Positions 23,630 through 37,920 of a stretch of 64,000 bases of DNA are shown here, piece after piece; the first letter of the stretch is position 1; each line of letters opens with the position of its first letter. Source of the DNA: Dehalococcoidia bacterium (GTDB lineage Bacteria > Chloroflexota > Dehalococcoidia > Lucifugimonadales > Lucifugimonadaceae); the NCBI GenBank assembly GCA_026421215.1, contig JAPKBN010000003.1, positions 45,698-109,697 of the forward strand, read 5' to 3'. A program made the position numbers and the translations under genes. A model generated the notes under the pieces. The model was not told the DNA's origin and ran no database searches. It saw nothing but the letters and a program-made list of their open reading frames with translations.

Positions 23630-24091
23630 ATGCGGATCGCCATAGGAGGGGATCACGCCGGATTCCCGATGAAGGCTCCGGTAGTGGACCTGCTTCAATC
23701 ATGGGGCCACGACGTCGTCGACCACGGGACGAACAGCACAGAGCCAGTCGATTTCCCGGACATAGCGCGGATCGTCTGCGGCGACGTCAAGTCGGGTAGG
23801 GCAGACCGCGGGATCATGGTGTGTGGCACCGGCGTCGGCGCCGCCATCGCAGCCAACAAAATCCCAGGGATACGCGCCTCTCTGAGCCACGACACGTATT
23901 CGGCGCACCAGGGCGTCGAACATGACGATGTGAACGTGATCTGCCTCGGGGCTCAGATAATCGGCCTGAACCTCGCCGAAGAGATACTCAAAGCGTTCCT
24001 GGACGCGAAGTTCAGCACCGAAGACCACTTTCGCAGGCGCGTGGAGAAGCTGGGCGAGTTAGAGCGAGACGCGGCCCGAGAACTGGGTTGA
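23630..24091 (+). CDS. rpiB: ribose-5-phosphate isomerase B (RpiB/LacA/LacB family)
   Basis: MRIAIGGDHAGF and CGTGVGAAIAANKIPGIRA motifs. 153 aa. Confidence 0.9.
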   Translation: MRIAIGGDHAGFPMKAPVVDLLQSWGHDVVDHGTNSTEPVDFPDIARIVCGDVKSGRADRGIMVCGTGVGAAIAANKIPGIRASLSHDTYSAHQGVEHDDVNVICLGAQIIGLNLAEEILKAFLDAKFSTEDHFRRRVEKLGELERDAARELG

Positions 24092-24098
24092 TTGGGCT

Positions 24099-24594
24099 TT
24101 AGTTCCCGACCGGTAGCGCGAGTAAGTTGGCGATGAGATCGTCGATCTCGCCATTTCCCCAATTGCCCGTCACGTTGTGCGTTGTCCTGGATTACAACAC
24201 CTGGTCAAGTGTGTTCGCAATCCCTTCGTGGGGCGTGGCGTGGTGAGCCAGAGTCAGCACAGACTCGGCGTATCGAACATCGTCCCGAGCTCGTGGGAGT
24301 TCTTCTCCGGCGCCGGGTCTCCAGTTTCCACATCCTGTATCTCTCCGTCTAAGAATGTCTTCTGGATGTGACACTCGGCGCATCCAAGCGCCTGAAACGC
24401 CTGCTCTCCAGCCGCAAACGCGCCCGGTTTTGTCTCGTACCCGGAGACTCGCCAGATGCCAGGTTGATCGCCCTCAGCGCGCCGCTCCTAAACACGGTGA
24501 TAAACGCCGTTACCCCGTCATTCACAACGCTATGCCAATGCAAATCGGCCCATGACGTTTCTCGTGCAACACGACTGGAAGTTATAGAACCCAC
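24099..24594 (-). pseudogene. decayed C-terminal half of a c-type cytochrome (di-heme peroxidase/MauG-like)
   Basis: Minus-strand pieces lie in three frames. One has GEQAFQALGCAECH (CXXCH) ...FDTPSL. The next has LAHHATPHEGIANTLDQVL followed by an in-frame TAA at 24192-24194. Then comes ...GNGEIDDLIANLLALPVGN and a stop at 24099-24101. There is no start codon and no N-terminal half. Confidence 0.5.
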
Positions 24595-24705
24595 TGGAGC
24601 TAATTAGTCGTCGTCCAATATTCCCCGCGAGATCCACGCCTGCGTTATCCTCCCCGCAGTTTTCCATTCAAATCTCAATCGCCCGTAACGTCAGGAGCCG
24701 CCCAG

Positions 24706-25563
24706 ATGCCGTTCGCGAAGATCATCTCCGAGACGACGCCCGAAGGGGTGCTCATCCTCACGATGAACGACCCGGACACGCTCAACGCGCTTGGTGAGCC
24801 GCTTATGCCGGAGCTTGAGTCGGAAGTCGATCGGTTCGCCGCAGATAACGATCTTCGAGTTCTGGTGATAACCGGGTCGGGCAGGGCGTTTTCTTCTGGA
24901 GCGAATGTCCGTGGGTTCCAGCGTCGCATCAACGACGCCGAGACCGCAGCCGAAGCAGTTCCCGAGCCACGGGCTACATCCTGGGAAGAACTGGACCCGG
25001 ATTACACTGCGCGTGAGGCGTTAGGTCAGAAGTCTGGACCAGCGATCGTGCCAAAGCTTCACAACCTCCACAAGCCGTCGTTCGCTGCCGTCAACGGCCA
25101 TGCCTACGGCCTCGGTTGCGGCATAGCGATTTCTTGCGATATCAGAATCGCCGGCGAGAGCGCACGATTTAACGAGGCATTTATCCGTAACGGCCTCGTC
25201 CCGGCGGATGGCTCGGCATGGCAATTGCCAAAACTAGTCGGCATGGCGAACGCCCTCTGGATGCAGTACTCGGGCGACCCGATCGACGGCCAGGAAGCGT
25301 ACCGAATAGGTCTTGCCAACAAAGTCGTGCCGGACGACAAACTGATGGAGACAACGCTCGAGATGGCCACCAAACTGGCCCGCGGGCCAGTCTACGCAAT
25401 GGGCATCGTGAAGCAGTTGATCCACCAGGCCTACCAGCAGGACCTTGCCGAGCACCTTCCTCTGGCGTCACGTGGACAGGACTTGACCCGCACTACCTTC
25501 GACCACAAAGAAGGCGTCGCCGCCTTCCTGGAGAAGCGAAAACCCGAGTTCCGTGGCCACTAA
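24706..25563 (+). CDS. enoyl-CoA hydratase/isomerase (crotonase) family protein
   Basis: 285 aa with VITGSGRAFSSGANV and AAVNGHAYGLGCGIA oxyanion-hole regions. Confidence 0.85.
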   Translation: MPFAKIISETTPEGVLILTMNDPDTLNALGEPLMPELESEVDRFAADNDLRVLVITGSGRAFSSGANVRGFQRRINDAETAAEAVPEPRATSWEELDPDYTAREALGQKSGPAIVPKLHNLHKPSFAAVNGHAYGLGCGIAISCDIRIAGESARFNEAFIRNGLVPADGSAWQLPKLVGMANALWMQYSGDPIDGQEAYRIGLANKVVPDDKLMETTLEMATKLARGPVYAMGIVKQLIHQAYQQDLAEHLPLASRGQDLTRTTFDHKEGVAAFLEKRKPEFRGH

Positions 25564-25610
25564 GGAGGGCTGTAGAAGGAGGGATTCGACTTACGGAACG
25601 TCTTCCTCGG

Positions 25611-25640
25611 CCTAACCCTCTCCCACTGGGAGAGGGAGCT
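25611..25640. repeat. REP-like palindromic intergenic element (copy 2)
   Basis: CCCTCTCCC (25616-25624) ACT GGGAGAGGG (25628-25636) gives a 9-bp stem. The core CCCTyCTCCCA..GrGAGArGG is shared with 21907-21947. Confidence 0.5.
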
Positions 25641-25688
25641 TCCGAGATCGTTATAAGCGCCAGGATAGCCCGAGGAGGATTGAGCAGC

Positions 25689-26969
25689 ATGCCCGGACCG
25701 TTGGATGGCGTTCGCGTCCTGGAGTTCTCACAGATCGTAGCGTTGCCGTTCAACGGTGCGATCATGTCCGACCTGGGTGCCGAAGTGATAAAGGTTGAAC
25801 CCCTCACAGGCGACCCACACCGCAACCGCGGCACCGTTATGCCAAACGAAGGGAAGCGATTTCAGTCGTTGAATCGTGGCAAGCAAAGTGTCGCTGTCAA
25901 TCTTCGTGATCCGCGTGGACTCGCCTTCATTCACAAGGTCGTTCAGACCGTCGACATTGTGACCATAAACTTCCGGCCTGGCGTATCGAAGCGTCTTGGC
26001 ATCGATTACGAAACGCTCAAAAAGCTCAACCCCGGGCTTATCTACTGTGAGATTACTGGTTTTGGGAATCGGGGGCCTATGGGTGATCGCGGCGGCACAG
26101 ATATCGTTGCCAATGGCTACAGCGGCCTCATGATGGCCGATCAAAAAGTCGACGAGCACGGTCAGCCTGCCAACATAAGCGCCATCTCACTGGCTGATTA
26201 CTGCGCCGGATTTTCGGCGACTGTCGGCATTACGTCAGCGTTGTATCACCGGGCGATAACTGGCCAGGGACAAAAGATCGAGACGTCTCTTCTTCAGGCC
26301 GCGATAGCAGTGCAGGACACCGTTGTCATGCGGGAGCCGGTGCACGACGCCACACTACGAGACCCAATGGTTACGGAGATCTTAGAGCTTAGGAAACAGG
26401 GCGCCGGCTACTCTGAGGTCCAGGATGCTTACCGAAGAGGCCGGGGAGCGTCCCGCGTTGCTTCAAGGGCGTACTACTCCACCTACCAGGTGAAGGACGG
26501 ATCGATGGTGCTCGGCGCGCTTACTCCCGCGAACCGAGCTGCCGCCCGAACTGTTCTCGGGATCGCATACGATCCGAGTGATGAGCCCGATTTTGACGAG
26601 TCGCAGCAACAAAGCATGGACCAGGCGACCGCGCTGCATGCCGAGATGCGGTCGACCCTGCGGACTCGCACACTGGAGGACTGGCTTGAGGCGTTTACAA
26701 ACGCCGGCGTCCCGGTAGCGCCGGTCAATATGCCCGAGGAAATGTCGGATGACCCACAGGTCGAGGCGATGGGCTTCATGCGGGACCTGGAACACCCACT
26801 CTTTGGCCCACAGCGACTGGCAGGCCCTGTGGTCTCAATGTCCGAGACTCCGACCGATATCCGAGGTGTCTCCCCGGGATTGGGCACCGACACAGAGTCC
26901 GTAATGCTGGCGGTAGGGATGTCAGAGGAAGACATAAAGGAACTCCGCCAGGACGGCGTGATTCTGTAG
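25689..26969 (+). CDS. CaiB/BaiF family III CoA-transferase
   Basis: MPGPLDGVRVLEFSQIVALPFNGAIMSDLGAEVIKVEP N-terminus. The track ORF from 25218 is an artefactual extension through the intergenic repeat. Confidence 0.85.
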   Translation: MPGPLDGVRVLEFSQIVALPFNGAIMSDLGAEVIKVEPLTGDPHRNRGTVMPNEGKRFQSLNRGKQSVAVNLRDPRGLAFIHKVVQTVDIVTINFRPGVSKRLGIDYETLKKLNPGLIYCEITGFGNRGPMGDRGGTDIVANGYSGLMMADQKVDEHGQPANISAISLADYCAGFSATVGITSALYHRAITGQGQKIETSLLQAAIAVQDTVVMREPVHDATLRDPMVTEILELRKQGAGYSEVQDAYRRGRGASRVASRAYYSTYQVKDGSMVLGALTPANRAAARTVLGIAYDPSDEPDFDESQQQSMDQATALHAEMRSTLRTRTLEDWLEAFTNAGVPVAPVNMPEEMSDDPQVEAMGFMRDLEHPLFGPQRLAGPVVSMSETPTDIRGVSPGLGTDTESVMLAVGMSEEDIKELRQDGVIL

Positions 26970-27216
26970 GGACCTTCAGGTTGTCCATGCACCTTCTCTT
27001 GATGGGACCTATGTTCTTGTCGCAGGGTACGTTTTTTTTGCGACTTGGATTGTCACTTAGAACGCCGTAGGGGAAAGATAGAACATAAACGCGGCGGAAC
27101 GATGGCCGGGAGATTCCTCGCGTGCCGACTTCGGAATGACAGATTACTCGCATCAACCCCATATGGACGGCGCTAGCTCTGCCCGTCGCCCGCCTTTCAA
27201 AGATCTCAGAAAACCA

Positions 27217-27248
27217 GAAAGAGGGCCGATTCACATCGACCCTCTTTC
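27217..27248 (-). terminator. putative terminator hairpin of the minus-strand operon
   Basis: GAAAGAGGG (27217-27225) pairs with CCCTCTTTC (27240-27248). It lies 22 nt downstream of the DUF1501 stop and is followed on the minus strand by TGGTTTTCT. Confidence 0.45.
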
Positions 27249-27269
27249 ATCGTTGCTCTAAGAGTGGAT

Positions 27270-28418
27270 TTACACGGCCACAGCGAACGGCGAAATCTTC
27301 TCAAAATTCCCGCCAACAATCTCCTGCGCGTCCAGTCCCAGCCAGTCTTCCAGCAGGTCCGTGTAAAGGCCACGGAAATCAAAATTGTATTGCAGGTCGC
27401 CCTCCATCAACCGGCCCACGTCCAGGGACGGGTACTCGGAGTAGTGACCGCCTTTGACTGAATCTCCGATTACGAACGAAACGCCACCGGAGCCGTGGTC
27501 GGTTCCATTGCCGTTGTCCTTGACTCGACGACCGAACTCGGAGAACACGAGGATTGTGACCTCCGGGCCGAGATCGTGCTCTTCGAGGTCCTGATAGAAG
27601 GCGCGAAGCCCTGTCGAAACCTCTTCCCACAGGCCTCTCTGTAACGAGAGTTCATTGGTGTGCGTGTCCCAACCGCCGGACGTCGTGTAAAAGACACGGG
27701 TGCCGAGGTCCGCAAAGTGAACCTGTGCGACGCCCTTTAGGGCCTTTGCGATCGGGTTGTCGGGGTACTCCACCGTCGACTCGTACATCTTCGGTGCCTG
27801 CTTGAGGATGTCGGCGCCCTTTAGTGCGTCCAAACCAGTCTTGCCCAGATAGTCCATCACCATGCCGCTGCCGACGCCTGGCGTGTAGATGCGACTGAAG
27901 GCGGTCAATGCCTTCTCACGCTGCTCTGCTCCAGACATGCCGGTCAGCAGCCCGTAGTCGTCCAGATTGCCGACCGAGGCCACAGGGACGCCAGGGGCCG
28001 CTAGGGCGCGTGGCAGGCCATTGCCGAAGTTAACGGCGGTCACCACGTTTGATCCTGTCGGGTCCAATTGGCGAACGGCCTGACCAAGCCAGCCCTCATC
28101 ACCGACCCTGTCCGGGGTCGCGGTGTGCCAGATGTCCATCGATCGAAAGTGTGACCGGCTGGGGGTCGGGTAGCCAATGCCGTGAATGATGGCGACGCGA
28201 TCCTGATCGTAAAGCTCTTTGAACGCGCCCATGCCGGGGTTAAGTCCCAGGCCATTGTCCAGAGGAATCACGTCTTCCTCGGTGATCCTGACACCCGACC
28301 GCACGTCCTGATACATGGGATCTTCCCACGGAACGACGCAGTTCAGGTAGTCGTTACCACCTGAAAGCTGGACAATTACCAGCACCTTTTCTCTCTGCTC
28401 TGCCATCGTTTCCTCCAT
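27270..28418 (-). CDS. DUF1501 (sulfatase/alkaline-phosphatase-like) protein without signal peptide
   Basis: VIVQLSGGNDYLN near the N-terminus and a GNGTDHGSGG motif. 382 aa. No RR motif or hydrophobic leader is visible. Confidence 0.85.
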   Translation of the reverse strand: MEETMAEQREKVLVIVQLSGGNDYLNCVVPWEDPMYQDVRSGVRITEEDVIPLDNGLGLNPGMGAFKELYDQDRVAIIHGIGYPTPSRSHFRSMDIWHTATPDRVGDEGWLGQAVRQLDPTGSNVVTAVNFGNGLPRALAAPGVPVASVGNLDDYGLLTGMSGAEQREKALTAFSRIYTPGVGSGMVMDYLGKTGLDALKGADILKQAPKMYESTVEYPDNPIAKALKGVAQVHFADLGTRVFYTTSGGWDTHTNELSLQRGLWEEVSTGLRAFYQDLEEHDLGPEVTILVFSEFGRRVKDNGNGTDHGSGGVSFVIGDSVKGGHYSEYPSLDVGRLMEGDLQYNFDFRGLYTDLLEDWLGLDAQEIVGGNFEKISPFAVAV

Positions 28419-28505
28419 CTGGACCCGTTTGCGTCAGGGTTGTCCCGGCCATCTCTGGTGACCGGATGACATCGTAGCGCCGTTGTCGGATTGGCGCATT
28501 AGTTT

Positions 28506-29522
28506 TTAGACAATTTCAAATATCTGGAATCGGTGTCTGGCGGTTTCTAACACGAGTAACCGGTCATCGCCATATGTCGTCACCGCAACTGGTACCCAGA
28601 AATAGGGTTCAGTGCGGGCCGAAACTTCGTAAGGTTCATCGACATCCAACTTGGGGTAGGGGTTGAATACCTCGCGAGCGATCTTCTCGTCCTTGTTGGC
28701 GTTGATGTAATCAGCCGCCCACGGAGACAATCCAGCTTCACCGAGAACGATCGTCTGGAAGTTCCAGTCCTTGTCGAACACCTGCACACGTTGATTCTGC
28801 CAGTCGGCCACATAAATGAAACCGTCGTCATCCACGGCGACCGAAGAAGGCCGATTGAACTGACCATCTCCGTCTCCGGACTCTCCGTGCGCGTCGATGA
28901 ACACGCCGTCTTCTTCAAAGCGCTGGATCCTGTCGTTGCGCCAATCGGCTACGTAGATCCTTCCGTCCGAGGCGGTGGTGATGCCCCAGGGATAGTTGAA
29001 CTGGCCTTTGGCCGATCCTTCAGAACCAAACGAATCGATATATTCGCCGTCCACTGTGTACCGCTGGATGCGGTGATTCTTGTGGTCGACAACAAGCAGA
29101 TTGCCATTGGCGTCAAATGCCAATCCTGAAGGGCCATCAAACTCGTTTGGCCCGGAGCCGGCGGTTCCCCAGTGGCTCACGTAGTTGTTTTCCGAGTCGA
29201 AGATGGTGATCCGCTGCATCTTTTCGTCGGCTAGGAACAGACGATCACTGGAGTCGATCGCAATGGCGGTACCCCATTGCATCTCACCGTCGCCGGTTCC
29301 GTATCCGGAAAACTCGCCGTGCCAGTTGTGGTCGATGTCCGTGACGCTGATGCCCGTTCCGGCGAGGGACCCTTGTCCGCTGCGACTCAAGACAAAGATG
29401 AGCCCATCTTTTCGGACAGCGAAGTCGACAGGAAAATGGTAGCCGCGACCACCCTGGGCGGCGCCGAAGCCGTTGGTGTCTATGTACTTCAGTTGTCTTT
29501 GTTTCCGTATTTCAGTCGTCAT
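28506..29522 (-). CDS. NHL-repeat beta-propeller protein (copy A)
   Basis: Repeated F..P.G.A.D..G...V.D..N.RIQ.F units. There is a GGAG SD 8 nt before the ATG at 29522. It is a paralog of 31126-32139. Confidence 0.8.
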   Translation of the reverse strand: MTTEIRKQRQLKYIDTNGFGAAQGGRGYHFPVDFAVRKDGLIFVLSRSGQGSLAGTGISVTDIDHNWHGEFSGYGTGDGEMQWGTAIAIDSSDRLFLADEKMQRITIFDSENNYVSHWGTAGSGPNEFDGPSGLAFDANGNLLVVDHKNHRIQRYTVDGEYIDSFGSEGSAKGQFNYPWGITTASDGRIYVADWRNDRIQRFEEDGVFIDAHGESGDGDGQFNRPSSVAVDDDGFIYVADWQNQRVQVFDKDWNFQTIVLGEAGLSPWAADYINANKDEKIAREVFNPYPKLDVDEPYEVSARTEPYFWVPVAVTTYGDDRLLVLETARHRFQIFEIV

Positions 29523-29564
29523 TGGATTACTCCGTGTGCCGCTTCTGGCGCCACTGCACACATA

Positions 29565-31010
29565 TCAGGCAAGTTGGTACTCGCGGGTGGAGACGATCAG
29601 TTGGAGCAGGGAAGTGATCTTGCCCGCCCCATCCTCGGTCGACGGATCGACATCACCTTGCTCACGCACAAAGGCCAAGAGACCATTGAGTGTGCCGTCT
29701 TCCACGCGCAGACGGCCCACCAGTCCAAGACAATCTTCCACCAGCGCTTCGGGCTCGACATTTCCTGACGGATGACGGTCCGCTATGCGGCTGACGATGG
29801 CTTTAACGCCCCTCTTGTCGGGATCACCGATTGTATCGCTGGCGAAATTAATCCGCTGGACCATAGAGCCGGTGCTAATCCAGTCATCTCCGCCCATCCA
29901 TCCCTCAACACTTGTCGGGCCAAGAAGCTGCTGTCCCATGTAGTTGCAGGCAGCGGTGGCCTTGTAAACGTCATCTGTCGGCCAGTCAAAATCACCGGCC
30001 AGGCGCAGGGTGCCAACTACGACCTCTGCCGGACTCTTGATTCTTGCGAACCGTTTAGTTTCAGACTTGAAAATGTCTGACTCAAACATCGCTCGTAGCA
30101 TGGCCCCGATGCTGTAATCATTTGCGAAGTAAGCGTCGACCATCAATTGAATGGCCTCCGGATCCTTGGGTCCTTCAAACGGCCACTGCGGAACGGGAAG
30201 TTCGTCGGCCACGAAGTGGTGATACAGGTGGCGAGCAATGAACTGTGGAGTCGCCGGGTTCTTGCAGATGATGTCGATGACATCTTCGCCCGTGAAGTTT
30301 CCGGTCTCGCCAAGGAACGTTTTCTCGCCATCGTCGTGATCCGACTCGTCGTACTCAAACTGCCATGCGATGTAGCCGTACGGCCGGAGCGTGTTGTTCC
30401 GCATCTTTGTCGACATGTACGGCATATTGGCGATCGTCCAACCTGTGAACGCCCGCGCACACTCTTTAACGTCATCTTCCGTGTAGTTGCCCACGCCCAT
30501 AGCGAACAACTCGAGAATTTCACGGCCGTAGTTCTCGTTGATGTTGTCCTTGTGATTGTCCTGGTTGTCCAGCCACAGGATCATCGCCGGGTCTTTGGAT
30601 AGCTGTATGAGAAGTTCACGGAAGCTGCCAAGGCCGTACTTACGGAACATGTCTATCTGGCTGATCATGACCTTGCCCTGGATCACCTTCGTCTGTCCCG
30701 TGGCGAACACACGGTGCCAGAACAGGGCGATCTTTTCTTCGAATGGTGTCTTGGTGGTCACCAGCCTGTACATCCAGAACGAGCCAGATGATGGCGGAAT
30801 GCGCAGGTCGTTATGGTCTGCGTGATACCGGCGAATCAGGTCAACAGGCAACGGATCTGCGTCACCCGGGTTGAACAGCTGATCAAGCGTTCCTTCGTAG
30901 CCGAGCTCGCCGGCTTCCTCAAGTTCTCCGGGGGTCGATCCGAACCCTGTACGGCGCAACAAATGCGCAATTAGATCAAGTTCGGTTCCAATATTCGTAG
31001 CGGTAGCCAT
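29565..31010 (-). CDS. DUF1800 family protein (copy A)
   Basis: LIAHLLRRTGFG, FWHRVFATG, ILWLDNQDN and ENYGREILELF motifs. There is a GGAGG SD 7 nt before the ATG at 31010. The track ORF is extended to 31088. Confidence 0.85.
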   Translation of the reverse strand: MATATNIGTELDLIAHLLRRTGFGSTPGELEEAGELGYEGTLDQLFNPGDADPLPVDLIRRYHADHNDLRIPPSSGSFWMYRLVTTKTPFEEKIALFWHRVFATGQTKVIQGKVMISQIDMFRKYGLGSFRELLIQLSKDPAMILWLDNQDNHKDNINENYGREILELFAMGVGNYTEDDVKECARAFTGWTIANMPYMSTKMRNNTLRPYGYIAWQFEYDESDHDDGEKTFLGETGNFTGEDVIDIICKNPATPQFIARHLYHHFVADELPVPQWPFEGPKDPEAIQLMVDAYFANDYSIGAMLRAMFESDIFKSETKRFARIKSPAEVVVGTLRLAGDFDWPTDDVYKATAACNYMGQQLLGPTSVEGWMGGDDWISTGSMVQRINFASDTIGDPDKRGVKAIVSRIADRHPSGNVEPEALVEDCLGLVGRLRVEDGTLNGLLAFVREQGDVDPSTEDGAGKITSLLQLIVSTREYQLA

Positions 31011-31125
31011 GTAACAGCCTCCAGATGTTGTGCTGGATTGTACCGTGAACGCGATAACCTTCAAACCATCGCTAGACAATCGGTTCAAGTGTGCATGTCC
31101 GTGCTTACGAAAGCAGTCGCCCGGA

Positions 31126-32139
31126 CTAGACCTTCTCGTACACTTGGAATCGGTGTCGGCCGGTCTCTAGGATCAAGATCCGGGTGTCGTCGTACAAAGC
31201 GATCGATACCGGGTCCCAGAAGTAGGGCTCCGTCCGGGCCGATACCTCGTGCGGATCGTTCACATCAAGCTCCGGATAAGGGTCGAAGGTGGAGCGTGCT
31301 TCCTTTTCGTCGGCATTGGCGTCGATGTACTCGGCCGCCCACTTGGACAGCTCGCCCGCGCCGCGGATGCTTGTCTGGAAGTTCCAGTCCTTGTCGAAAG
31401 CCTGGACGCGCTGGTTGCCCCAGTCGGCGACAAAGATGTTCCCATCGTCGTCAACAGCGACGTTTGCCGGCCGGTTGAACTGGCCTTGGCCATGTCCGGT
31501 GGTGCCGCAGGCGTCGATAAATTTACCCTCGTGGGTGAACCGCTGGATGCGATCATTGCGCCAGTCTGCGATGTAAATCACACCGTCCGGCGCAACCGTG
31601 ACGCCCCAAGGGAAGCTGAACTCGCCATTTCCATCACCCGCGGAACCGAATGAATTCAGATACTTACCGTCCGGCGTGTAGCGCTGGATGCGCTGATTCT
31701 TATCATCCACCACGAGAAGATTTCCGTCACGGTCAAAAGCTATGCCAGACGGTCCGTCGAACTCGCCCTCGCCGGACCCCTCGGTCCCCCAGTGAGATTC
31801 GTAGTTGTGGTCGGCATCGAAGATGGTGATGCGGTGAAGCGCTTCGTCAGCCATGAACAGTCGGTCGCTGGCGTCGAAAGCGATCGCCGTCGCGGAGATG
31901 AACTGCCCGGGCGCGATCCCGCGACTGGAGATCTCTTCGAACCAGTTGTGGTCGATATCGGTGATTTTGATGCCGTTGCCGCCCTGAATCGCGTCGCCGC
32001 GGCTCAGGACGTATATCCGGCCGTCACTTCGCACCGCGAGATCCACAGGAAGGTAGTACCCGCGCCCGCCCTGTGCTGCGCCGAATCCGTTTGTGTCGCG
32101 GTACTCGAGGCCAAGCCTGGCCCCAGTTTCGGTTGCCAT
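31126..32139 (-). CDS. NHL-repeat beta-propeller protein (copy B)
   Basis: 337 aa with the same repeat architecture and C-terminal tail as copy A. A GGAG SD lies upstream. Confidence 0.8.
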   Translation of the reverse strand: MATETGARLGLEYRDTNGFGAAQGGRGYYLPVDLAVRSDGRIYVLSRGDAIQGGNGIKITDIDHNWFEEISSRGIAPGQFISATAIAFDASDRLFMADEALHRITIFDADHNYESHWGTEGSGEGEFDGPSGIAFDRDGNLLVVDDKNQRIQRYTPDGKYLNSFGSAGDGNGEFSFPWGVTVAPDGVIYIADWRNDRIQRFTHEGKFIDACGTTGHGQGQFNRPANVAVDDDGNIFVADWGNQRVQAFDKDWNFQTSIRGAGELSKWAAEYIDANADEKEARSTFDPYPELDVNDPHEVSARTEPYFWDPVSIALYDDTRILILETGRHRFQVYEKV

Positions 32140-32201
32140 AATTCAACTACTCCGTAACGACCCTGCCTGACCCTGGATGGGATGAGGACTCGGCCTCAGG
32201 A

Positions 32202-33674
32202 TTAGACCAACTGGTACTCGCGGGTCGAGACGATCAACTGAAGGACCGAAACGATCTTGTCCACTCCATCATCGGTGCGGGGGTCGATGTCGCCCTGTTC
32301 CCTTGCGTACGTGACGATCCCTTCCTTAGTGTCGTCCTCGACCCTGAGAGAACCGACAAGTTCCAGGCACTCATCCACCAGCGCTTTGGGTGTTACAAGT
32401 CCTCGAGGGTGACGGTCAGAAATCTGATTGATGATCGATTTGATGCCCTTTTTGGTGGGATCACCGACCGTGGCGCTGGCGAAGTTGATCCGTTGCACCA
32501 TCGAACCGGTGCTTATCCAGTCATCGCCGCCCATCCAACCCTCGACGCTCACCGGTGCCAACAACGCCTGCCCCATAAAGCCGCAGGCGGCGGTCGCTTT
32601 GAAGATATCGGCGGTCGGCCAGTCAAAGCCGCCGGCGAGTCGCAATGTTCCAACCACAAGCTCGACGGGGCTCTTGATGCGGGCGTACTGAGTGGCTTCT
32701 GACTTGAACATCTCGGACTCGAAGACCGCCCGCAACATGGCGCCGATGCTGTAGTTGTCGGCGAAGTAGGCGTCGACCATCAGCTCGATCGCTCCCGGAT
32801 CCTTCGGACCCTCGAACGGCCACTGCGGCACGGGGAGCTCGTCGGCGATGAAGTGATGGTACAAGTGGCGTGCTATGAAGCGTGCTGTGGCTGGGTTCTT
32901 ACAGATGATGTCGATGATGTCATCGCCGTTGAAGTTGCCAGTCTCACCCAGGAACGTCTTCTCACCCTCATCGTGATCTTCAGGGTCGAACTTGTACTGC
33001 CAGGCGACGTATCCGTACGGGCGCAACGTGTTGTTGCGCATCCTGATCGACATGTACGGCATGTTCGCGATCGTCCAGCCGGTAAAAGCTCGTGAGCATT
33101 CTTTGATGTCTTGCTCTGAATAGTTGCCGACGCCCATGGCGAACAATTCGAGGATTTCTCGTCCGTAGTTCTCGTTGATGTTGTCCTTGTGATTGTCCTG
33201 GTTGTCCAGCCACAAGATCATCGCCGGGTTCTGGGAGAGCTGGACGAGCAGGTCTCGGAAACTGCCAAGACCGAACTGCCTGAACATCTCGATTTGGGTG
33301 AGCATCACTTTGCCCTGAATCAACTTGGTCTGACCAGTGGCAAAGATGCGATGCCAGAACAGCGCGATTTTCTCTTCAAACGGCGTTTTCGTGGTCGACA
33401 TCCGGTACATCCAGACCGATCCCGACGACGGAGCGATCTGTGTAATCGACTGGTCGGGATGGTACCTACGGATGATGTCCGAAGGCATCGACTCCGGGTC
33501 GCCAGGGTTGAAAAGAAGGTCGAGCGTCCCCTGATAACCGAGATCGCCGGCAGCCTGAAGCTCTTCCCACGTTGCGCCAAACCCTGCGCGTCGCAACAGA
33601 TGGGCGATCAGCTCGATGTCGGTTCCGGATCTTGCGGCGGTAGTCAAGGTCAACGTCTCCCAGGCTTCACCCAA
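32202..33674 (-). CDS. DUF1800 family protein (copy B)
   Basis: Same motifs as copy A. The likely true start is the TTG at 33647, which has GGGAG 9 nt upstream and gives MTTAARSGTDIELIAHLLRR, parallel to copy A. Confidence 0.85.
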   Translation of the reverse strand: MGEAWETLTLTTAARSGTDIELIAHLLRRAGFGATWEELQAAGDLGYQGTLDLLFNPGDPESMPSDIIRRYHPDQSITQIAPSSGSVWMYRMSTTKTPFEEKIALFWHRIFATGQTKLIQGKVMLTQIEMFRQFGLGSFRDLLVQLSQNPAMILWLDNQDNHKDNINENYGREILELFAMGVGNYSEQDIKECSRAFTGWTIANMPYMSIRMRNNTLRPYGYVAWQYKFDPEDHDEGEKTFLGETGNFNGDDIIDIICKNPATARFIARHLYHHFIADELPVPQWPFEGPKDPGAIELMVDAYFADNYSIGAMLRAVFESEMFKSEATQYARIKSPVELVVGTLRLAGGFDWPTADIFKATAACGFMGQALLAPVSVEGWMGGDDWISTGSMVQRINFASATVGDPTKKGIKSIINQISDRHPRGLVTPKALVDECLELVGSLRVEDDTKEGIVTYAREQGDIDPRTDDGVDKIVSVLQLIVSTREYQLV

Positions 33675-33767
33675 ATGAGTTAGTGGGGTGGGCGGATTGT
33701 AACGGTTGGCCGGGAAGCTTCAAACCCATGTCACCTCCGACGGGCATCGGGTGAAATAGTCAAATTA

Positions 33768-34937
33768 CTAGGGACCTGTTCCGTTGCTTGAGTCAGATCT
33801 CAAGGTCGGATCGTAATCGGCGACCAGATCGGCTAGTTTCCGGCGGTGATATTTAGGGTCACCAAGTGAGTGGTATAGAGAACGCGAAAGCTGTGTGAAA
33901 AGCGATAGGCCGTACTCCCGCATGACGCCCACGCCGGCGTGTACTTCATGCGCGTAGTTGGTCGCCTGAACGAACCCCTCGCTGGTGACAGCCTTCGCGA
34001 GATGCACCGAAATTTCCTGGTCCGGCCTGTGTGCGTCGATCTTCCACAGCGCCTCGTAGGTGGTCCAGCGCGCTGAGTCAAGGTGGTTTACAAGTTGAAC
34101 GATGTGGTTCTGGACGTGCTGAAATCGACCGATCAGCTGTCCGAACTGAACTCGCTCACGGCTGTACTCAACAGACATGTCGTAAACGGCCTGGGAACCG
34201 CCAACTTTGAATGCGCAAAGGATCGGTGTGGAGTGCCGCAGCGCCGCCTCGAAACCGCTCAGCGCAGAGGCCGATCCTCCAAGCAGTGCGTCACCAGGGA
34301 CGTCGACGTTATCGAAGGTCACTTCGCATTCTGTAGTGAGGAAGCCTTCGATCCGCCGAATAGATACGCCAGGAAGCGATGTGTCCACCATCAAGAAACC
34401 TATATCGGTGGGATTGTCGCCGGTACGCACCGCTGTGATCAGGTAGTCTGCCGTGAAGGCGTCGTACACAAACAGTTTGGTGCCGTTCAGCCCGTAGCTA
34501 TTCCTACGACGCTCGATCTTCAGTTGAATCCCGTCAACTCCCCACGCCCAGTCCGGCTCTGTAATCGCGAGCGCAACTACACTCTCACCGCTGGCGATCT
34601 TCGGCAGATATTCCGACCTCTGGGGCGGATCGCCGAGCGCTAGCAATGTGTGCGCTGCCAGTACGCCGGACGAGAAGAATGGACCCGGGACCGGCCCATA
34701 TCCAAGCGCCTCATACACGACCGCTGTGTCGGTGAGGCTGCTACCGCTTCCGCCGTACTCCTCCGGGATCACCATGCCAAGCCATCCGATTTCGGCGGCC
34801 TTGCTCCAGGTGTCCCGTGAGTAACCTTCTTCGGTCTGTACGAGCTCGATGATCGCCTCACGAGGGGACTCGTGGGTGATGAAGTCCTCGACTCCGGACT
34901 TCAGTAGCTGCTGCGTTTCTGTGAGTGAAAGATCCAT
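33768..34937 (-). CDS. acyl-CoA dehydrogenase family protein
   Basis: 389 aa with ACAD N-terminal, middle and C-terminal layout (GWLGMVIPEEYGG, GTKLFV). Confidence 0.85.
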   Translation of the reverse strand: MDLSLTETQQLLKSGVEDFITHESPREAIIELVQTEEGYSRDTWSKAAEIGWLGMVIPEEYGGSGSSLTDTAVVYEALGYGPVPGPFFSSGVLAAHTLLALGDPPQRSEYLPKIASGESVVALAITEPDWAWGVDGIQLKIERRRNSYGLNGTKLFVYDAFTADYLITAVRTGDNPTDIGFLMVDTSLPGVSIRRIEGFLTTECEVTFDNVDVPGDALLGGSASALSGFEAALRHSTPILCAFKVGGSQAVYDMSVEYSRERVQFGQLIGRFQHVQNHIVQLVNHLDSARWTTYEALWKIDAHRPDQEISVHLAKAVTSEGFVQATNYAHEVHAGVGVMREYGLSLFTQLSRSLYHSLGDPKYHRRKLADLVADYDPTLRSDSSNGTGP

Positions 34938-35011
34938 GGATGTTGAAACTGGCTTTCTTCAGGCGGTTTGAGGCTGGGCGAAGTATCGAAAATAAGCTGG
35001 CATATACCCGC

Positions 35012-36229
35012 TTATTCAGCCGTTTTGCCTGCCTTCTCCCGGACCTTCCTACCTATGCCGATACGGCGGGCCATGATCACCTTCTGGATGTCGGCGGTCG
35101 CTCCCGGGTGGAGGTCGACGATGCTGGACTTCATGAAAGAGTCCAGCTGCCCGCCAGACGTGTCCCAACGAGGGTCGTTGGTCAGAGCATAAGGGCCGAC
35201 CAGCTCCATGATTGACTCCGCGGTCGCTAGGTGGGCCATCTTCCGGAAGTAAGAAGCCTGCGGGCCCTCGTACGTCATCTCGATATGAGAGCGGTTCATC
35301 CAGAAATTCCGGAGATCGAATAGTCGGGCGACCTCCGTCCTGATGAACACATCGGCAAGCCGGTCCCGGACATCGCTGTCCTCCAGAATCGGGTTCCCAC
35401 CCTTCTTGAGGCCCATCGCGCGCTGTCGAGCACGGTCAAACCATCGGTTACGCCCAATACGGCCGCCGGAGCCATGTTCAAGCTCGAGGTGAGTGGTGGC
35501 GACCTTCCAACCGTTGTTCACGCCGCCGACAAGGTTTGATCCAGGAACCCGAACGTTGTCAAAGAAGATCGTGTTCTTATGCCCGCGTCCCGGTCCGCCG
35601 CCTTCGTCGCCCATCAAGTCCATAGGCGTGATGGTGATACCGGGAGAATCCGCCGGTATCAGGAACCAGCTCAAGTTCTCGTGGCGCTTGCCTTCGGGGT
35701 CGGTGCGGGTGATAGTCCAGAGATAGTCAGCACCGTGGGTGCCGCCGACATAGATCTTCTGGCCGTTCACTATGTAGTCGTCGCCATCCTGAACCGCCTC
35801 GGTTTGCGTTCCAGCTAGGTCGGAACCAGCCTCTGGCCCTGTGAGCAACTGCCATGTAACGACCTCGCCCGTGAAGATAGGCGGCAGCATCCGGGTCTTC
35901 TGCTCGTCTGTGCCCCACACAAGGATCGATGCGCCACCGAGAGTTCCTCCTGTGTCGTAATAGGGCGGAATTCCAAGATCGTACGCGTCGATCTCTTCGC
36001 CGATCACGATGGCGTTGTCGACCGACAGACCGCCGCCGCCGTACTCCACTGGTGCGGTCGGCCTTAACCAGCCAAGTTTGCCCAACTGACGGCCGAACTC
36101 TCGGTACTTCGGGTAGTTCTCGTCAGAGTCGGAATCTCCCTCGATCACAGGAACGTGCTCTGCTAGCCATGAACGGACCTCCTCACGAAAGGCTTCCTGT
36201 TCAGCCGTGTAGGCGGGCTCAAAATCCAA
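35012..36229 (-). CDS. acyl-CoA dehydrogenase family protein
   Basis: 405 aa with GWLRPTAPVEYGGGG and VNGQKIYVGG motifs typical of ACADs. Confidence 0.85.
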   Translation of the reverse strand: MDFEPAYTAEQEAFREEVRSWLAEHVPVIEGDSDSDENYPKYREFGRQLGKLGWLRPTAPVEYGGGGLSVDNAIVIGEEIDAYDLGIPPYYDTGGTLGGASILVWGTDEQKTRMLPPIFTGEVVTWQLLTGPEAGSDLAGTQTEAVQDGDDYIVNGQKIYVGGTHGADYLWTITRTDPEGKRHENLSWFLIPADSPGITITPMDLMGDEGGGPGRGHKNTIFFDNVRVPGSNLVGGVNNGWKVATTHLELEHGSGGRIGRNRWFDRARQRAMGLKKGGNPILEDSDVRDRLADVFIRTEVARLFDLRNFWMNRSHIEMTYEGPQASYFRKMAHLATAESIMELVGPYALTNDPRWDTSGGQLDSFMKSSIVDLHPGATADIQKVIMARRIGIGRKVREKAGKTAE

Positions 36230-36381
36230 AATTTACTCTCCGCTACTCTCAAGGGCGTACGGTCATGGCCCAAACAAGACTCAATCGGGAGTGTACAGCA
36301 GGCTCCGGGACAAATATGGCTGAGTTCTACCCGGAATCAAGGCCATCTATTAATGCCAAGATCTCGAGTGCTGTCGCTAGC

Positions 36382-37920
36382 TTATTTACCGTTTTTGATG
36401 AAGTCGGCGACGCGTTCGCCAACCATGATGATCGTGGCATTCGTGTTGGCGCGGATGCAGTCCGGCATTACCGAGCCATCTGCCAAGCGAAGGCCCTCAA
36501 CGCCTCGCACACGACAGTACTGATCCAGAACCGCCATTTCGTCCGAATCTGGACCCATCTTCGCTGTCCCAGAGATATGGTGCATCGTCTCTACGTTGCG
36601 CATCATCCACGCATCTAACGTTTCATCCGTCACAAGATCGGCTGGCGCCGGGTCTATAAGGGCGCCGATGATCGGCTCGAACGCTTTGTGTTCCGAAAGG
36701 CGAAGATTCAATCGCACTCCATCACGCAAACGTTTTATGTCGGACGGATCGTCCAAGAAGTTGTAATTGAGGGATGGTTGGACAGACACATCGGGGGAAG
36801 TAAGTCGTAGTTCTCCCGAAGACTTCGCTAGATAAAGCCCGGCGCTCATCACAATTAGCCTTTCGGGAGAGTTCCAGCGCATGACCGTTATCATGTCGTT
36901 GCGCTGGTTCGAGTCCGTCGCCGTGTACCGGAGAGCGACTTTCTGTGGTCCGATATCGGTGCCGGGCATCTGGAAGTCATCTTTCGCGTTCCAGCGCGTG
37001 TGAACCGTGACGTGATCCCGTAGGTTCTGCCCCACCCCGGGGGAGTCTAGGACAACTGGTATGTCAAACTTGCGAAGGTGTGCAGCGGGCCCGATGCCGG
37101 ACAGCATCAGCAACTGAGGACTAGCAATTGGGCCAGCAGACAAAATTATCTCGTTGCCTGTAACGGTGAAGGTCTCCCCCCCAGATTCCACCACCACCCC
37201 GGATGCGCGTTGGCCGTCGAAAATGACCTTATGAGCCGTACAGTTCGGTCTGATGGTGAGGTTGATGCGGTGCCGCGCCTGCGACAGGTAACCAATGCTG
37301 GTGCTCCACCGGATGTCGTTGGGATTGTTCAAGGGTAGAGGGCCGATGCCGGTGGAATCCGGATCGTTGTGATCTGGGCTGTTGGCAAAACCAGCGTCCC
37401 GGCAAGCGTCAGTGAATGCCGCCTGGTCGTTCATCAATTCATCCGGCATGAAGCGACGAACCATGATCGGCCCGTCGTTGCCGTGGTAGTCGCCGGAATA
37501 ATTAGTGTCGGTCTCTATCTTGTTCAAGTAGGGGAATACCTTCTCGTACGCCCACTCTTGGTTGCCCCGTGATGCCCAGTCGTCGAAATCTTCAGGTAAG
37601 CCACGCAGAAAAACGGATCCATTGATGGCACTTGTTCCGCCAGTGACGCGCCCTCGTGGGACACGCATGGGAGGGGCTGTGGCTGTTGCGGTGCCGGTGA
37701 ACTGCCAGTCGTGGTCTCCGCCTACAGCAGAGTTGAGGCCGATTCCAAGGTCTGTCCCGGTGCCGTGATTGAATTTGACGTCGTCTGGAAGTGAGTCGAC
37801 GTTCGGGTAATCCGGCCCGGCTTCCAGTAGCAAAACGCTACGGTTCGGGTCTTCTGAAAGTCTTGTCGCAACAGTCGCGCCGCCGGAGCCAGATCCAACA
37901 ACGATGACGTCATAATTCAC
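36382..37920 (-). CDS. GMC family oxidoreductase (choline dehydrogenase-like)
   Basis: YDVIVVGSGSGGATVATRLSED FAD fold and a GMC C-terminal signature (HISGTAKMGPDSD...ADGSVMP). 512 aa. Confidence 0.9.
   Translation of the reverse strand: MNYDVIVVGSGSGGATVATRLSEDPNRSVLLLEAGPDYPNVDSLPDDVKFNHGTGTDLGIGLNSAVGGDHDWQFTGTATATAPPMRVPRGRVTGGTSAINGSVFLRGLPEDFDDWASRGNQEWAYEKVFPYLNKIETDTNYSGDYHGNDGPIMVRRFMPDELMNDQAAFTDACRDAGFANSPDHNDPDSTGIGPLPLNNPNDIRWSTSIGYLSQARHRINLTIRPNCTAHKVIFDGQRASGVVVESGGETFTVTGNEIILSAGPIASPQLLMLSGIGPAAHLRKFDIPVVLDSPGVGQNLRDHVTVHTRWNAKDDFQMPGTDIGPQKVALRYTATDSNQRNDMITVMRWNSPERLIVMSAGLYLAKSSGELRLTSPDVSVQPSLNYNFLDDPSDIKRLRDGVRLNLRLSEHKAFEPIIGALIDPAPADLVTDETLDAWMMRNVETMHHISGTAKMGPDSDEMAVLDQYCRVRGVEGLRLADGSVMPDCIRANTNATIIMVGERVADFIKNGK

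Follow-up and report, generated by a model that had tools for sequence, protein, structure and literature searches.

The DUF1800/DUF1501 gene pair (PF08811 and PF07394) is known, widespread and normally exported. In a Dehalococcoidia bacterium (contig JAPKBN010000003.1) it is found in a signal-less form with a constant third gene, encoding a beta-propeller. The same form is seen in SAR202 bacteria of the deep ocean and in Entotheonella, a symbiont of sponges. The question raised by this locus is whether it represents a system of its own and, if so, where and how its proteins might act. The original prediction, a cytoplasmic three-component variant with the propeller as dedicated partner, is supported by the absence of signals across a whole clade and by the synteny of the NHL genes, the cytoplasmic location being deduced from missing signals and cytoplasmic-type neighbour genes. 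We consider that the locus encodes a conserved three-protein module, most likely cytoplasmic and derived from the exported pair, with a catalytic DUF1501 protein and a DUF1800-NHL adaptor; we give this reading as a whole about an even chance (roughly 0.5). A literature search for functional studies of DUF1800 and DUF1501 found none, and no member with a demonstrated activity.

The window, i.e. the whole stretch of 64,000 nucleotides analysed, contains five minus-strand ORFs in the order DUF1800, NHL, DUF1800, NHL and DUF1501 (Table 1). Their coordinates confirmed the co-directional arrangement proposed earlier, with gaps of 62, 115, 42 and 87 nt when the starts then preferred are used. For DUF1800_A the TTG is the most likely start, as it yields the length of copy B and of the homologues. 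The DUF1501 start originally chosen, ATG 28418, lacks a Shine-Dalgarno sequence; ATG 28406 is more likely, with GGAGG 5 nt upstream and a product as long as the closest homologues. Upstream of the longest possible starts of the five genes an in-frame stop is reached after 1, 1, 5, 15 and 26 codons, leaving no space for a Tat or Sec signal (for DUF1800_A the stop is at 33720-33722). The claim that all five N-termini are devoid of a signal thus withstood the search for upstream alternative starts. The two DUF1800 proteins share 75% identity over 481 aa, and NHL_B is a paralogue of NHL_A (65% identity). The regions upstream of both DUF1800 genes align across a promoter-like element with identical hexamers and spacing; two such sites were found in the region against 2.7 expected by chance, which is no excess. 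The DUF1800-NHL unit and its upstream promoter-like region appear to have been duplicated in tandem, so that two DUF1800-NHL pairs may serve one DUF1501.

Table 1. Features of the cluster (positions in the window)
Feature	Position	Strand	Details
Promoter-like site upstream of DUF1800_A	33696..33723	-	TTGAAG-16-TACAAT
DUF1800_A	32202..33647	-	481 aa from TTG 33647 (most likely start); alternative starts 33653, 33674
NHL_A	31126..32139	-	six-bladed NHL beta-propeller; 337 aa; stop one codon upstream of ATG
NHL_A insert between blades 5 and 6	31225..31386	-	WNFQTSIRGAGELSKWAAEYIDANADEKEARSTFDPYPELDVNDPHEVSARTEP; 54 residues, 252-305, conserved; coordinates checked by translation
NHL_A sixth blade, degenerate	31138..31218	-	WDPVSIALYDDTRILILETGRHRFQVY; residues 308-334; blade pattern common to blades 2-5
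Promoter-like site upstream of DUF1800_B	31037..31064	-	TTGAAG-16-TACAAT
DUF1800_B	29565..31010	-	481 aa from ATG 31010; GGAGG 7 nt upstream of ATG
NHL_B	28506..29522	-	338 aa from ATG 29522; GGAG 7 nt upstream of ATG
NHL_B insert	28605-28766	-	same insert and sixth blade as NHL_A
DUF1501, signal-less	27270..28406	-	378 aa from ATG 28406 (more likely start); in-frame stop 28434-28436
DUF1501 motif GGND16-19	28350-28361	-	invariant in clade; translation-checked
DUF1501 motif R84-S85-H86	28149-28157	-	invariant in clade; translation-checked
DUF1501 motif D247-T-H249	27660-27668	-	invariant in clade; translation-checked
DUF1501 motif GTDHG301-305	27492-27506	-	invariant in clade; translation-checked
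Terminator-like hairpin, candidate	27217..27248	-	just 3' of DUF1501 stop codon; 14-bp stem, 7 G-C pairs, then T-rich tail; consensus match

The conservation of the cluster was examined in 82 mapped loci, located in other genomes by means of the propeller, and at least 589 loci were confirmed in species-representative genomes. Most of the 82 belong to Dehalococcoidia/SAR202 and a few to Entotheonella, Entotheonella factor encoding the same trio (L085 and L089); among the 80 loci listed, several pairs share one assembly (e.g. L043 with L057, L022 with L071). The neighbourhood survey bore out the prediction: DUF1800 lies directly upstream of NHL in 78 of 82 loci (a contig end cuts three of the four exceptions), with a median gap of 59 nt, and DUF1501 is within the cluster in 66. 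The trio is kept together in three different gene orders; the arrangement is DUF1800-NHL-DUF1501 in 37 loci and DUF1501-DUF1800-NHL in 20, and 7 loci have two DUF1800-NHL pairs with one DUF1501. In 13 loci DUF1800-NHL is found without DUF1501 within 8 kb and may therefore act alone. No fourth conserved family emerged from the 82 loci, the next commonest neighbour occurring in 16. Pairwise identities of 55 triads correlate strongly, with Pearson coefficients, inflated by shared descent, of 0.95 (DUF1800/NHL), 0.94 (DUF1800/DUF1501) and 0.91 (NHL/DUF1501), which suggests that the three genes are inherited as one unit. Synteny and co-divergence also suggest that the three proteins may interact physically.

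The missing signal proved to be a property of the clade. In the 82 loci the maximal N-terminal extension that could precede the first conserved motif amounts to a median of 15 residues for DUF1800, 17 for NHL and 13 for DUF1501, no hydrophobic stretch was found in these extensions in any of the three families, and the N-termini are short and polar throughout. As a control we used 72 loci with distant DUF1501 relatives (33-44% identity). These carry 39-195 extra N-terminal residues, and an RRxFL-type twin-arginine motif is present in 66 of the 72. DUF1800 adjoins DUF1501 in this set wherever the contig reaches, and an NHL-like gene accompanies only one of the 72 Tat-type pairs, 3 kb away. The control set includes eight signal-less loci; all lack the Tat motif and six have an NHL gene, the remaining two being contig-limited. 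A twin-arginine leader of roughly 40-80 residues, kept in the nearest relatives, has thus been lost in one DUF1501 clade, comprising Dehalococcoidia/SAR202 and Entotheonella, and essentially only in this clade is the pair accompanied by a gene for a dedicated NHL propeller, usually directly after DUF1800. The propeller has 335-341 residues and a family-specific 54-residue insert ahead of the last blade.

The clade otherwise resembles the canonical Tat-dependent pair. The same two families are co-directional and co-inherited; PF08811 is matched along its full length, positions 1-419 of 419, by both DUF1800_A (E 8.5e-102) and DUF1800_B (E 3.7e-103), and the present DUF1501 aligns end to end with its Tat-type relatives, in which GGND, RSH, DTH and GTDHG are identical. 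The differences are the missing leader, the third gene, usually placed between the other two, the capacity of the DUF1800-NHL unit for duplication and a diverged N-terminal half of DUF1501, because of which PF07394 is matched only over model positions 201-335 (E 1.1e-22; score 81 bits, cut-off 27). The signal-less state of DUF1800, also noted earlier, is real but not unusual, since in most partners of Tat-bearing DUF1501 proteins the HLLRR motif is likewise preceded by just 10-35 polar residues; canonical DUF1800 is therefore probably exported bound to Tat-tagged DUF1501.

The AlphaFold2 model of DUF1501 (pLDDT 76, weak around residues 295-303) resembles members of the alkaline-phosphatase superfamily (S1 sulfatases, LtaS-type transferases, YejM/PbgA), with matches to sulfatases, LtaS and YejM at E 1e-6 to 1e-4 and modest TM-scores of 0.37-0.47; sequence similarity to any solved structure is undetectable. 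In this model the N-terminal Asp and, in GTDHG, the D-H pair occupy positions typical of the superfamily, and a nucleophile-like Ser follows the second core strand. The protein lacks the C/S-x-P-x-R formylglycine motif and has Y-P-x-P-x-R-S-H-F instead. Fold and motif conservation make DUF1501 a probable metal-dependent ester hydrolase. As the catalytic subunit of the module, a hydrolase or transferase, it would use Ser85 as nucleophile, with one metal ion held by Asp19, Asp303 and His304 and a possible second by Asp247 and His249, and its substrate would be an ester of phosphate, phosphonate or sulfate. DUF1800 would be its obligate helical partner, a dependence absent in the characterised alkaline-phosphatase enzymes, and the propeller would bind DUF1800 to form a substrate-recognition or adaptor unit. 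The probable substrate is a small organic ester, imported or made intracellularly during the catabolism of dissolved organic matter. The cluster is flanked in the window by genes for acyl-CoA dehydrogenases, a CoA-transferase and an enoyl-CoA hydratase, and at locus L087 by those for aldolases, a dehydrogenase and an aminotransferase. At 16 loci the flanks include Opp/Dpp-type ABC importer genes, which in about six lie immediately upstream in the same direction; such neighbours are weak evidence because these genes are abundant throughout SAR202 genomes.

A comparable organisation is known from the DUF1501 modules of Planctomycetes/Verrucomicrobia, with PSCyt1/PSCyt2/PSD1 and in some cases a PSCyt1/WD40 protein, whose families are likewise greatly expanded and diversified within these genomes (PMC3542564). 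There also DUF1501 has a large partner and the most complex clusters include a beta-propeller protein. Those modules differ, however, in having signal peptides or Tat motifs, in their cytochrome-c-type domains and in a propeller that is WD40 rather than NHL; Pfam searches revealed no heme-binding motif or PSCyt/PSD match in the proteins studied here.

Both propellers match NHL (PF01436; E 5e-32 for NHL_A, 2.4e-36 for NHL_B), and the homologues of NHL_A, each about 335-341 aa long, align from end to end. They share six blades and the D-x-x-N-x-R-I-Q signature with other NHL-repeat propellers, both the TRIM71/Brat/Thin domains and the enzyme-type Vgb lyase, peptidyl-hydroxyglycine lyase and SMP-30, from which they differ in being stand-alone, in a conserved N-terminal GFxAxxGGRG motif, an invariant ADWRNDRIQ in blade 4 and the insert before blade 6, and in an obligate DUF1800 linkage seen in the gene neighbourhood. 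The conserved non-NHL tail of the original prediction has to be divided: residues 252-305 do form a conserved insert, with W267, Y271, D277, E278, A281, R282, P287, D292, E298, R302 and E304 family-invariant in NHL_A and no match in a Pfam search, whereas residues 308-334 fit the blade pattern and align with all 28 positions of the NHL model, although weakly (E 0.024; 15.1 bits where the cut-off is 20). For ScyF the propellers score 162 and 155 bits, below its cut-off of 350.

The propeller might itself be an enzyme, a lyase or lactonase like Vgb, peptidyl-hydroxyglycine lyase or SMP-30/gluconolactonase, working with DUF1800 while DUF1501 is optional or accessory. The 13 loci without DUF1501 would fit this, as would locus L087, where the DUF1800-NHL pair sits inside a catabolic operon flanked by aldolases, a dehydrogenase and an aminotransferase, and of the three links that between DUF1800 and NHL is the closest, in gap and in identity correlation. 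Both propellers also exceed the Pfam SGL cut-off (45 and 42.5 against 26.3 bits) and weakly match Vgb_lyase, but these matches overlap much stronger NHL matches within the same six-bladed group. The closest solved relatives (TRIM71, Brat, Thin; a PDB search with the family profile matched the NHL domains of TRIM71 at E 1e-87) are binding domains, not enzymes, most of the invariant residues are the structural NHL signature, and it is DUF1501 that is the most conserved of the three families (mean pairwise identity 0.63), with a full catalytic-type residue set. We regard an enzymatic propeller as unlikely.

Equally doubtful is a non-catalytic binding, scaffold or compartment complex, for instance of intracellular vesicles or in metal or mineral handling. 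It is hinted at by two DUF1800 proteins, W4LJC4 and W4LDN1, among the 15 most abundant in the arsenic/barium-mineralising vesicle fraction of Entotheonella (PMC12981691); Entotheonella factor encodes the same trio. These two are placed as DUF1800 only, however, the one signal-less NHL-linked member identified in Entotheonella factor being W4LMW5. The AlphaFold2 model of DUF1800_A is all-helical (pLDDT 79) and matches no PDB fold (best E 0.2). An invariant acidic loop in the family (LDNQDNH...INENYGRE) would also fit such a complex, as would its sole partial fold matches, which are to EF-hands, though these are not significant (E above 2). So would YejM, a non-catalytic superfamily member found among the DUF1501 fold matches. 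DUF1501, however, unlike typical pseudo-enzymes, retains every catalytic-type residue, and several diverged copies per genome together with the tandem duplication resemble the expansion of a catabolic enzyme family.

The system could also work outside the cytoplasm like the canonical pair, its proteins still being exported, either together with a partner that is encoded elsewhere and carries a Tat or Sec signal (hitch-hiking) or by a non-classical route, with which a missing N-terminal signal is compatible. Hitch-hiking is plausible in the DUF1800 family, as its canonical members mostly have no signal of their own and are presumably co-exported with DUF1501. We nevertheless hold continued export to be improbable, more so than the two preceding alternatives: the signal is absent from all three conserved proteins in about 80 loci, the leader has gone from the whole clade and not sporadically, no fourth conserved gene was found as a possible carrier, and the neighbour genes encode cytoplasmic enzymes. 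An exported protein of a related locus, the family-5 solute-binding protein of L007, does have a normal signal with a lipobox. Finally, bacteria commonly have NHL-repeat proteins and SAR202 genomes contain many paralogues, but the idea of the NHL genes as unrelated neighbours, in a gene-order accident of one lineage, is effectively refuted by the synteny and control-set surveys, in which NHL is missing from 71 of the 72 canonical pairs and adjoins DUF1800 in 78 of 82 loci, in three gene orders and two lineages, with the three families co-diverging.

The cluster in the window belongs to a conserved three-gene module (the trio) composed of DUF1800, an NHL propeller and DUF1501, which is signal-less throughout its clade, is derived from the Tat-type DUF1800/DUF1501 pair and has the propeller as its dedicated partner. 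In the window it consists of five co-directional ORFs on the minus strand, designated in order of transcription DUF1800_A, NHL_A, DUF1800_B, NHL_B and DUF1501, whose likely true starts were chosen using Shine-Dalgarno sequences and homologue lengths. The family assignments of the original prediction were borne out by Pfam and its intergenic gaps of 62, 115, 42 and 87 nt were reproduced, the last one increasing to 99 nt if DUF1501 starts at ATG 28406. The paralogues are 75% identical for DUF1800 and 65% identical for NHL. The regions upstream of the two DUF1800 genes can be aligned, with promoter-like hexamers and spacing identical in both, which suggests that the DUF1800-NHL unit was duplicated along with its upstream region. 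The total of promoter-like sites in the region is not above chance. Rfam and tRNA scans found nothing inside or close to the cluster. At the end of the window Rfam recognizes a partial tRNA gene, for which ARAGORN makes no call because the gene is truncated.

Features of the window and of related loci (L numbers, loci mapped in other genomes or contigs)
Feature	Sequence	Position	Strand	Remarks
DUF1800_A ORF	window	32202-33674	minus	likely start TTG 33647, 481 aa
NHL_A ORF	window	31126-32139	minus	likely start ATG 32139
Insert of NHL_A	window	31225-31386		family-specific, 54 residues
DUF1800_B ORF	window	29565-31088	minus	likely start ATG 31010, 481 aa
NHL_B ORF	window	28506-29561	minus	likely start ATG 29522
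DUF1501 ORF	window	27270-28418	minus	likely start ATG 28406, 378 aa, GGAGG 5 nt upstream
Promoter-like TTGAAG-16-TACAAT	window	33696-33723	minus	upstream of DUF1800_A; consensus match only
Promoter-like TTGAAG-16-TACAAT	window	31037-31064	minus	upstream of DUF1800_B; consensus match only
Terminator-like hairpin	window	27217-27248	minus	14-bp, 3' of DUF1501; consensus match only
Cluster flanks	window	23630-37920		
Over-extended mechanical ORF	window	25218-26969	plus	family III CoA-transferase match starts ~25695 (MPGPLDGVRV...)
Partial tRNA gene	window	63948-64000	minus	cut by window end; Rfam RF00005, 39 bits
Solute-binding protein and two permease genes	L007, L014, L018, L024, L026, L030	~2200-6450 each		
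PaREP1 gene(s)	L012	8993-9346		
PaREP1 gene(s)	L022	9023-9755		
PaREP1 gene(s)	L025	9878-10234		
PaREP1 gene(s)	L028	9023-9385		
FKBP-type isomerase gene	L085	7453-7884		Entotheonella
FKBP-type isomerase gene	L086	341-772		Entotheonella
FKBP-type isomerase gene	L089	8453-8884		Entotheonella
DUF1800-NHL pair	L087	7561-10020		

When one genome per species was scanned with the NHL protein, at least 589 loci were confirmed. The 80 loci listed comprise 76 from Dehalococcoidia/Chloroflexota/SAR202, three from Candidatus Entotheonella and one from a bacterium, and the closest among the matches listed is a Dehalococcoidia MAG with 97% identity. These matches place the window in a Dehalococcoidia genome of the SAR202 type. 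SAR202 are described in publications as belonging to the most abundant deep-ocean bacteria, and Entotheonella is a metabolically talented sponge symbiont. More than 2,295 relatives of the NHL protein were found at E up to 1e-10; the best 120 of these are 335-350 aa long, align over their full length with at least 51% identity and, where names are given, belong to Chloroflexi or Dehalococcoidia.

The three families were mapped by tblastn on 82 non-redundant loci. The most frequent layout was DUF1800-NHL-DUF1501 (37 loci), followed by DUF1501-DUF1800-NHL (20 loci), DUF1800-NHL only (13 loci) and DUF1501-[DUF1800-NHL]x2 (5 loci). The layout of the window, [DUF1800-NHL]x2-DUF1501, was found in two (L001 and L006) and DUF1800-NHL-NHL in one, and four were without DUF1800, three of them cut by a contig end. 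The conservation of the NHL gene beside its two partners, on which the original prediction depended, was thereby confirmed: DUF1800 lies directly before NHL in 78 of the 82 loci, with a median gap of 59 nt, and DUF1501 is part of the cluster in 66. Pairwise identities within the 55 complete triads are strongly correlated (Pearson 0.95 for DUF1800/NHL, 0.94 for DUF1800/DUF1501 and 0.91 for NHL/DUF1501). Judged from these identities, the trio is inherited as one unit, and this three-way co-inheritance signal argues for a physical complex.

When every in-frame start and the nearest upstream stop were listed, no upstream start restoring a Tat or Sec signal was found in the window, as expected for the signal-less cluster originally proposed. 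The in-frame stop above the longest start lies at 1 codon for both NHL genes, 5 for DUF1501, 15 for DUF1800_A and 26 for DUF1800_B. The Tat signal typical of DUF1501 is absent from the protein of the window, in which the first conserved motif is preceded by 12 residues only (15 with the alternative ATG 28418) and a stop lies 5 codons above the first ATG, and the DUF1501 N-termini are short and polar throughout the alignment of the clade. With the longest ORF extensions, the residues preceding the first conserved motif in the clade loci number 15 (DUF1800), 17 (NHL) and 13 (DUF1501) in the median, and none of these extensions contains a hydrophobic stretch. A first hydrophobicity threshold (Kyte-Doolittle >1.6 over 15 residues) proved too strict, as Tat signals score 1.1-2.2 in positive controls, and the conclusion that signals are lacking was based on N-terminal length and the RR motif instead. 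Cryptic export of the trio proteins is an alternative that carries real weight.

The control survey comprised eighty metagenome loci and was seeded with Tat-type DUF1501. In 72 of them DUF1501 is 33-44% identical to that of the window; a Tat motif is present in 66 of these 72, DUF1800 lies immediately upstream of DUF1501 wherever the contig allows, and a single locus has an NHL-like gene, which is partial and 3 kb off. The DUF1501 proteins of the other eight loci are 52-60% identical to that of the window, have 4-14 residues before GGND and no Tat motif, and an NHL gene adjoins in six of them, the remaining two being limited by contig ends. Loss of the signal is thus coupled with NHL linkage; the survey had been put forward with the original prediction as a refutation test for the NHL linkage, and its outcome favours that linkage. 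Three of the signal-less loci (L162, L164 and L168) show a third gene order, DUF1800-DUF1501-NHL, and belong to a more divergent subgroup (NHL 34-41% and DUF1800 45-48% identical to those of the window), so that the trio extends past the lineages that the genome survey had sampled.

Among known systems the Tat-dependent DUF1800/DUF1501 pair, itself uncharacterised, comes closest; its two genes are directly adjacent, without an NHL gene in 71 of 72 loci. In contrast, the NHL gene lies between DUF1800 and DUF1501 in the window and in 37 + 2 related loci, and flanks them in the other orders. In the control loci (L090-L169), canonical DUF1800 usually lacks a signal and has only 10-35 polar residues ahead of the HLLRR motif (e.g. 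L096, L097, L106, L113, L120), and a long Tat-like leader of its own occurs in a minority (e.g. L095, L101, L102, L104, L105, L108, L150). The usual lack of a signal suggests that canonical DUF1800 is often exported by hitch-hiking, bound to Tat-tagged DUF1501; this agrees with a published account in which canonical DUF1501 depends on Tat and shares an operon with DUF1800 (PMC5122149), and the signal-less clade supports the same route. A looser parallel is offered by the DUF1501 modules of Planctomycetes and Verrucomicrobia, some of which also encode a propeller protein, there of the WD40 type (PMC3542564). Literature searches on DUF1800, DUF1501 and SAR202 NHL repeats yielded neither a functional study nor an account of the trio, and nothing could be learned from mentions of DUF1800/DUF1501 in a transcriptome of Emiliania huxleyi and in a correlation study of marine metagenomes. 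The signal-less, NHL-linked form is a variant of the known pair that was not found in the literature searched.

DUF1501 of the window matches PF07394 with 81.2 bits (cut-off 27), the match being limited to the C-terminal part of the model (positions 201-335); its alignment with Tat-type family members (33-44% identity) spans the whole protein. With this DUF1501 as query, 13,135 relatives were found among 1.84 billion cluster representatives (50%-identity clusters). The signal-less group falls into very few of these clusters. The relatives that follow (33-44% identity) are 390-460 aa long and begin to align at about their residue 40-80, their extra N-terminal residues being textbook twin-arginine leaders, e.g. 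MNPKLSRRDLLRHGATFIAVGIAAPGW. With an AlphaFold2 model of DUF1501 (pLDDT 76, pTM 0.82), Foldseek retrieved carrageenan, choline and steroid sulfatases, LtaS and YejM (E 8.6e-7 to 1e-4, TM 0.37-0.47), which points to a predicted alkaline-phosphatase/sulfatase-type fold with conserved metal-site motifs; a sequence search of solved structures gave no match at all. The residues D19 (GGND, after strand 1), R84-S85-H86 (after the second core strand), D247-x-H249 and D303-H304 (GTDHG) are invariant and, in the model, fall where the alkaline-phosphatase superfamily puts its metal ligands and nucleophile. These motifs are also kept in Tat-type relatives, so the chemistry of signal-less and Tat-type DUF1501 is probably the same. 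An S1 formylglycine sulfatase was rejected: no Pfam Sulfatase match was obtained even at E up to 10, and the loop reads G-Y-P-x-P-x-R-S-H-F, with Cys/Ser missing at the position required by the formylglycine motif C/S-x-P-x-R.

Both DUF1800 proteins match PF08811 over model positions 1-419 of 419 (342 and 346 bits, cut-off 26.1, E ~1e-102), and their structural model is all-helical (pLDDT 79, pTM 0.83). Comparison with solved structures by sequence gave nothing significant (best E 0.42), and a fold search of the PDB with the model gave no match at E up to 0.001. The top fold matches were unrelated helical membrane proteins with TM below 0.17, and EF-hand matches, with E above 2, were not significant.

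The propellers score 122 and 109 bits against the NHL model PF01436 (E 5e-32 and 2.4e-36), with three repeats individually scored. A pattern search gave five blades per propeller, to which blade 1 was added by eye; the sixth blade is weak. Together the blades are predicted to form a six-bladed propeller. The family profile matches the NHL domains of TRIM71, Thin and Brat in the PDB, up to E 1e-87. The C-terminal tail had been regarded as non-NHL; this does not apply to the last blade, which lies inside it (WDPVSIALYDDTRILILETGRHRFQVY), but holds for a 54-residue insert between blades 5 and 6. The tail alone aligns with all 28 positions of the NHL model at E 0.024, below threshold. The insert is conserved as strongly as the propeller core, with W267, Y271, D277, E278, R282, E298, R302 and E304 invariant in 25 sequences of identity down to 52%. 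SMP-30/gluconolactonase (PF08450) also matches, with 45 and 42.5 bits (cut-off 26.3), overlapping the much stronger NHL matches. That the propeller itself is the enzyme is a rival explanation of real weight. ScyF (NF035926) was rejected, since its 161.7 and 155.2 bits (cut-off 350) come from the propeller repeats only, and the propeller ends in ...QVYEKV without the PEP-CTERM anchor of ScyF; the matches to ScyF, ScyE, Vgb and CIS12, all far below their cut-offs, reflect generic NHL similarity. NCBIfam contains no DUF1800 or DUF1501 model. Comparison of DUF1800, DUF1501 and the NHL tail with Pfam at a permissive threshold (E up to 10) gave known families only and no link to PSD1/PSCyt, sulfatase or others. 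None of the three protein types matched a PADLOC defence model at E up to 0.01, and the idea of an anti-phage defence system was therefore dropped.

We know of no function demonstrated for any DUF1800/DUF1501 pair. The reading we prefer is that the module probably acts in the cytoplasm, where the three proteins would form a complex, with DUF1501 as a metal-dependent ester hydrolase or transferase and DUF1800-NHL, which duplicates as a unit and is at times found alone, as a specificity or adaptor pair; the substrate would be an organic ester, imported or produced internally. A more novel reading, at a probability of roughly one in five, is that the trio is a hitherto unrecognised cytoplasmic enzyme complex in which a single catalytic subunit, the alkaline-phosphatase-fold DUF1501, would be programmed by interchangeable DUF1800-NHL specificity pairs, whose spread and duplication in SAR202 would provide a modular way of stripping phosphate, phosphonate or sulfate from imported recalcitrant organics. 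A non-catalytic or vesicle-associated complex also has real weight: two DUF1800 proteins (W4LJC4 and W4LDN1), possible members of this subfamily, are listed as abundant in the proteome of the arsenic/barium vesicle fraction of Entotheonella (PMC12981691), and Entotheonella factor encodes the trio. The cytoplasmic enzyme complex, if real, would offer an experimentally tractable entry to the function of the entire DUF1800/DUF1501 superfamily, of which the Planctomycete modules with their huge expansion are a part, because no export is needed, and a hydrolase would represent an unrecognised enzyme family in marine organic phosphorus or sulfur turnover. DUF1800/DUF1501 pairs are very common, with more than 13,000 relatives of this DUF1501 among 50%-identity cluster representatives, and the clade is a natural experiment in which the export signal has gone and a dedicated third partner has been gained. 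The signal-free version should lend itself better to laboratory expression and assays, and is of interest to those studying SAR202, Entotheonella and protein families of unknown function.

Clustering of all ORFs revealed no transporter, regulator or maturase travelling with the trio in more than 16 of the 82 loci. Opp/Dpp-type ABC permeases and luciferase-like monooxygenases are the next commonest neighbours, each seen in 15-16 loci only. In seven loci the permeases are joined by a family-5 solute-binding protein, and in about six the ABC genes stand directly upstream of the trio in the same orientation. Such importer genes may point to a substrate that is imported. Genes of the enolase superfamily and of the Gfo/Idh/MocA type were met less often. 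In L007 and the five loci listed with it, two Opp/Dpp-type permease genes and the gene of a family-5 solute-binding protein that has a lipobox and a normal signal stand directly upstream in the same direction, and a Gfo/Idh/MocA oxidoreductase gene lies downstream of the trio.

PaREP1 genes (PF05942, ~120 aa) are inserted between NHL and DUF1501 in several relatives (those in the table), resulting in larger gaps there. In Entotheonella (two assemblies and one sequencing-run contig) the gene of an FKBP-type peptidyl-prolyl isomerase is directly upstream of the trio. DUF1800-NHL without DUF1501 within 8-9 kb was seen in L087 and 12 more loci (e.g. L009, L039, L041, L044, L046, L055, L074). The pair of L087 sits among FAA-hydrolase, HpcH aldolase, aminotransferase IV, DHDPS-family and luciferase-like genes, its flanks including aldolases, a dehydrogenase and an aminotransferase. 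The flanks in the window encode an RpiB-like protein, an enoyl-CoA hydratase, a CoA-transferase III, two acyl-CoA dehydrogenases and a GMC oxidoreductase, a catabolic setting like that of SAR202. Of these genes, the nearest to the cluster (both acyl-CoA dehydrogenases, CoA-transferase and enoyl-CoA hydratase) recur in the 82%-identical relative L001 but not in more distant loci. The first 160 codons of the over-extended ORF in the table run, in a different frame, across the end of the enoyl-CoA hydratase gene.
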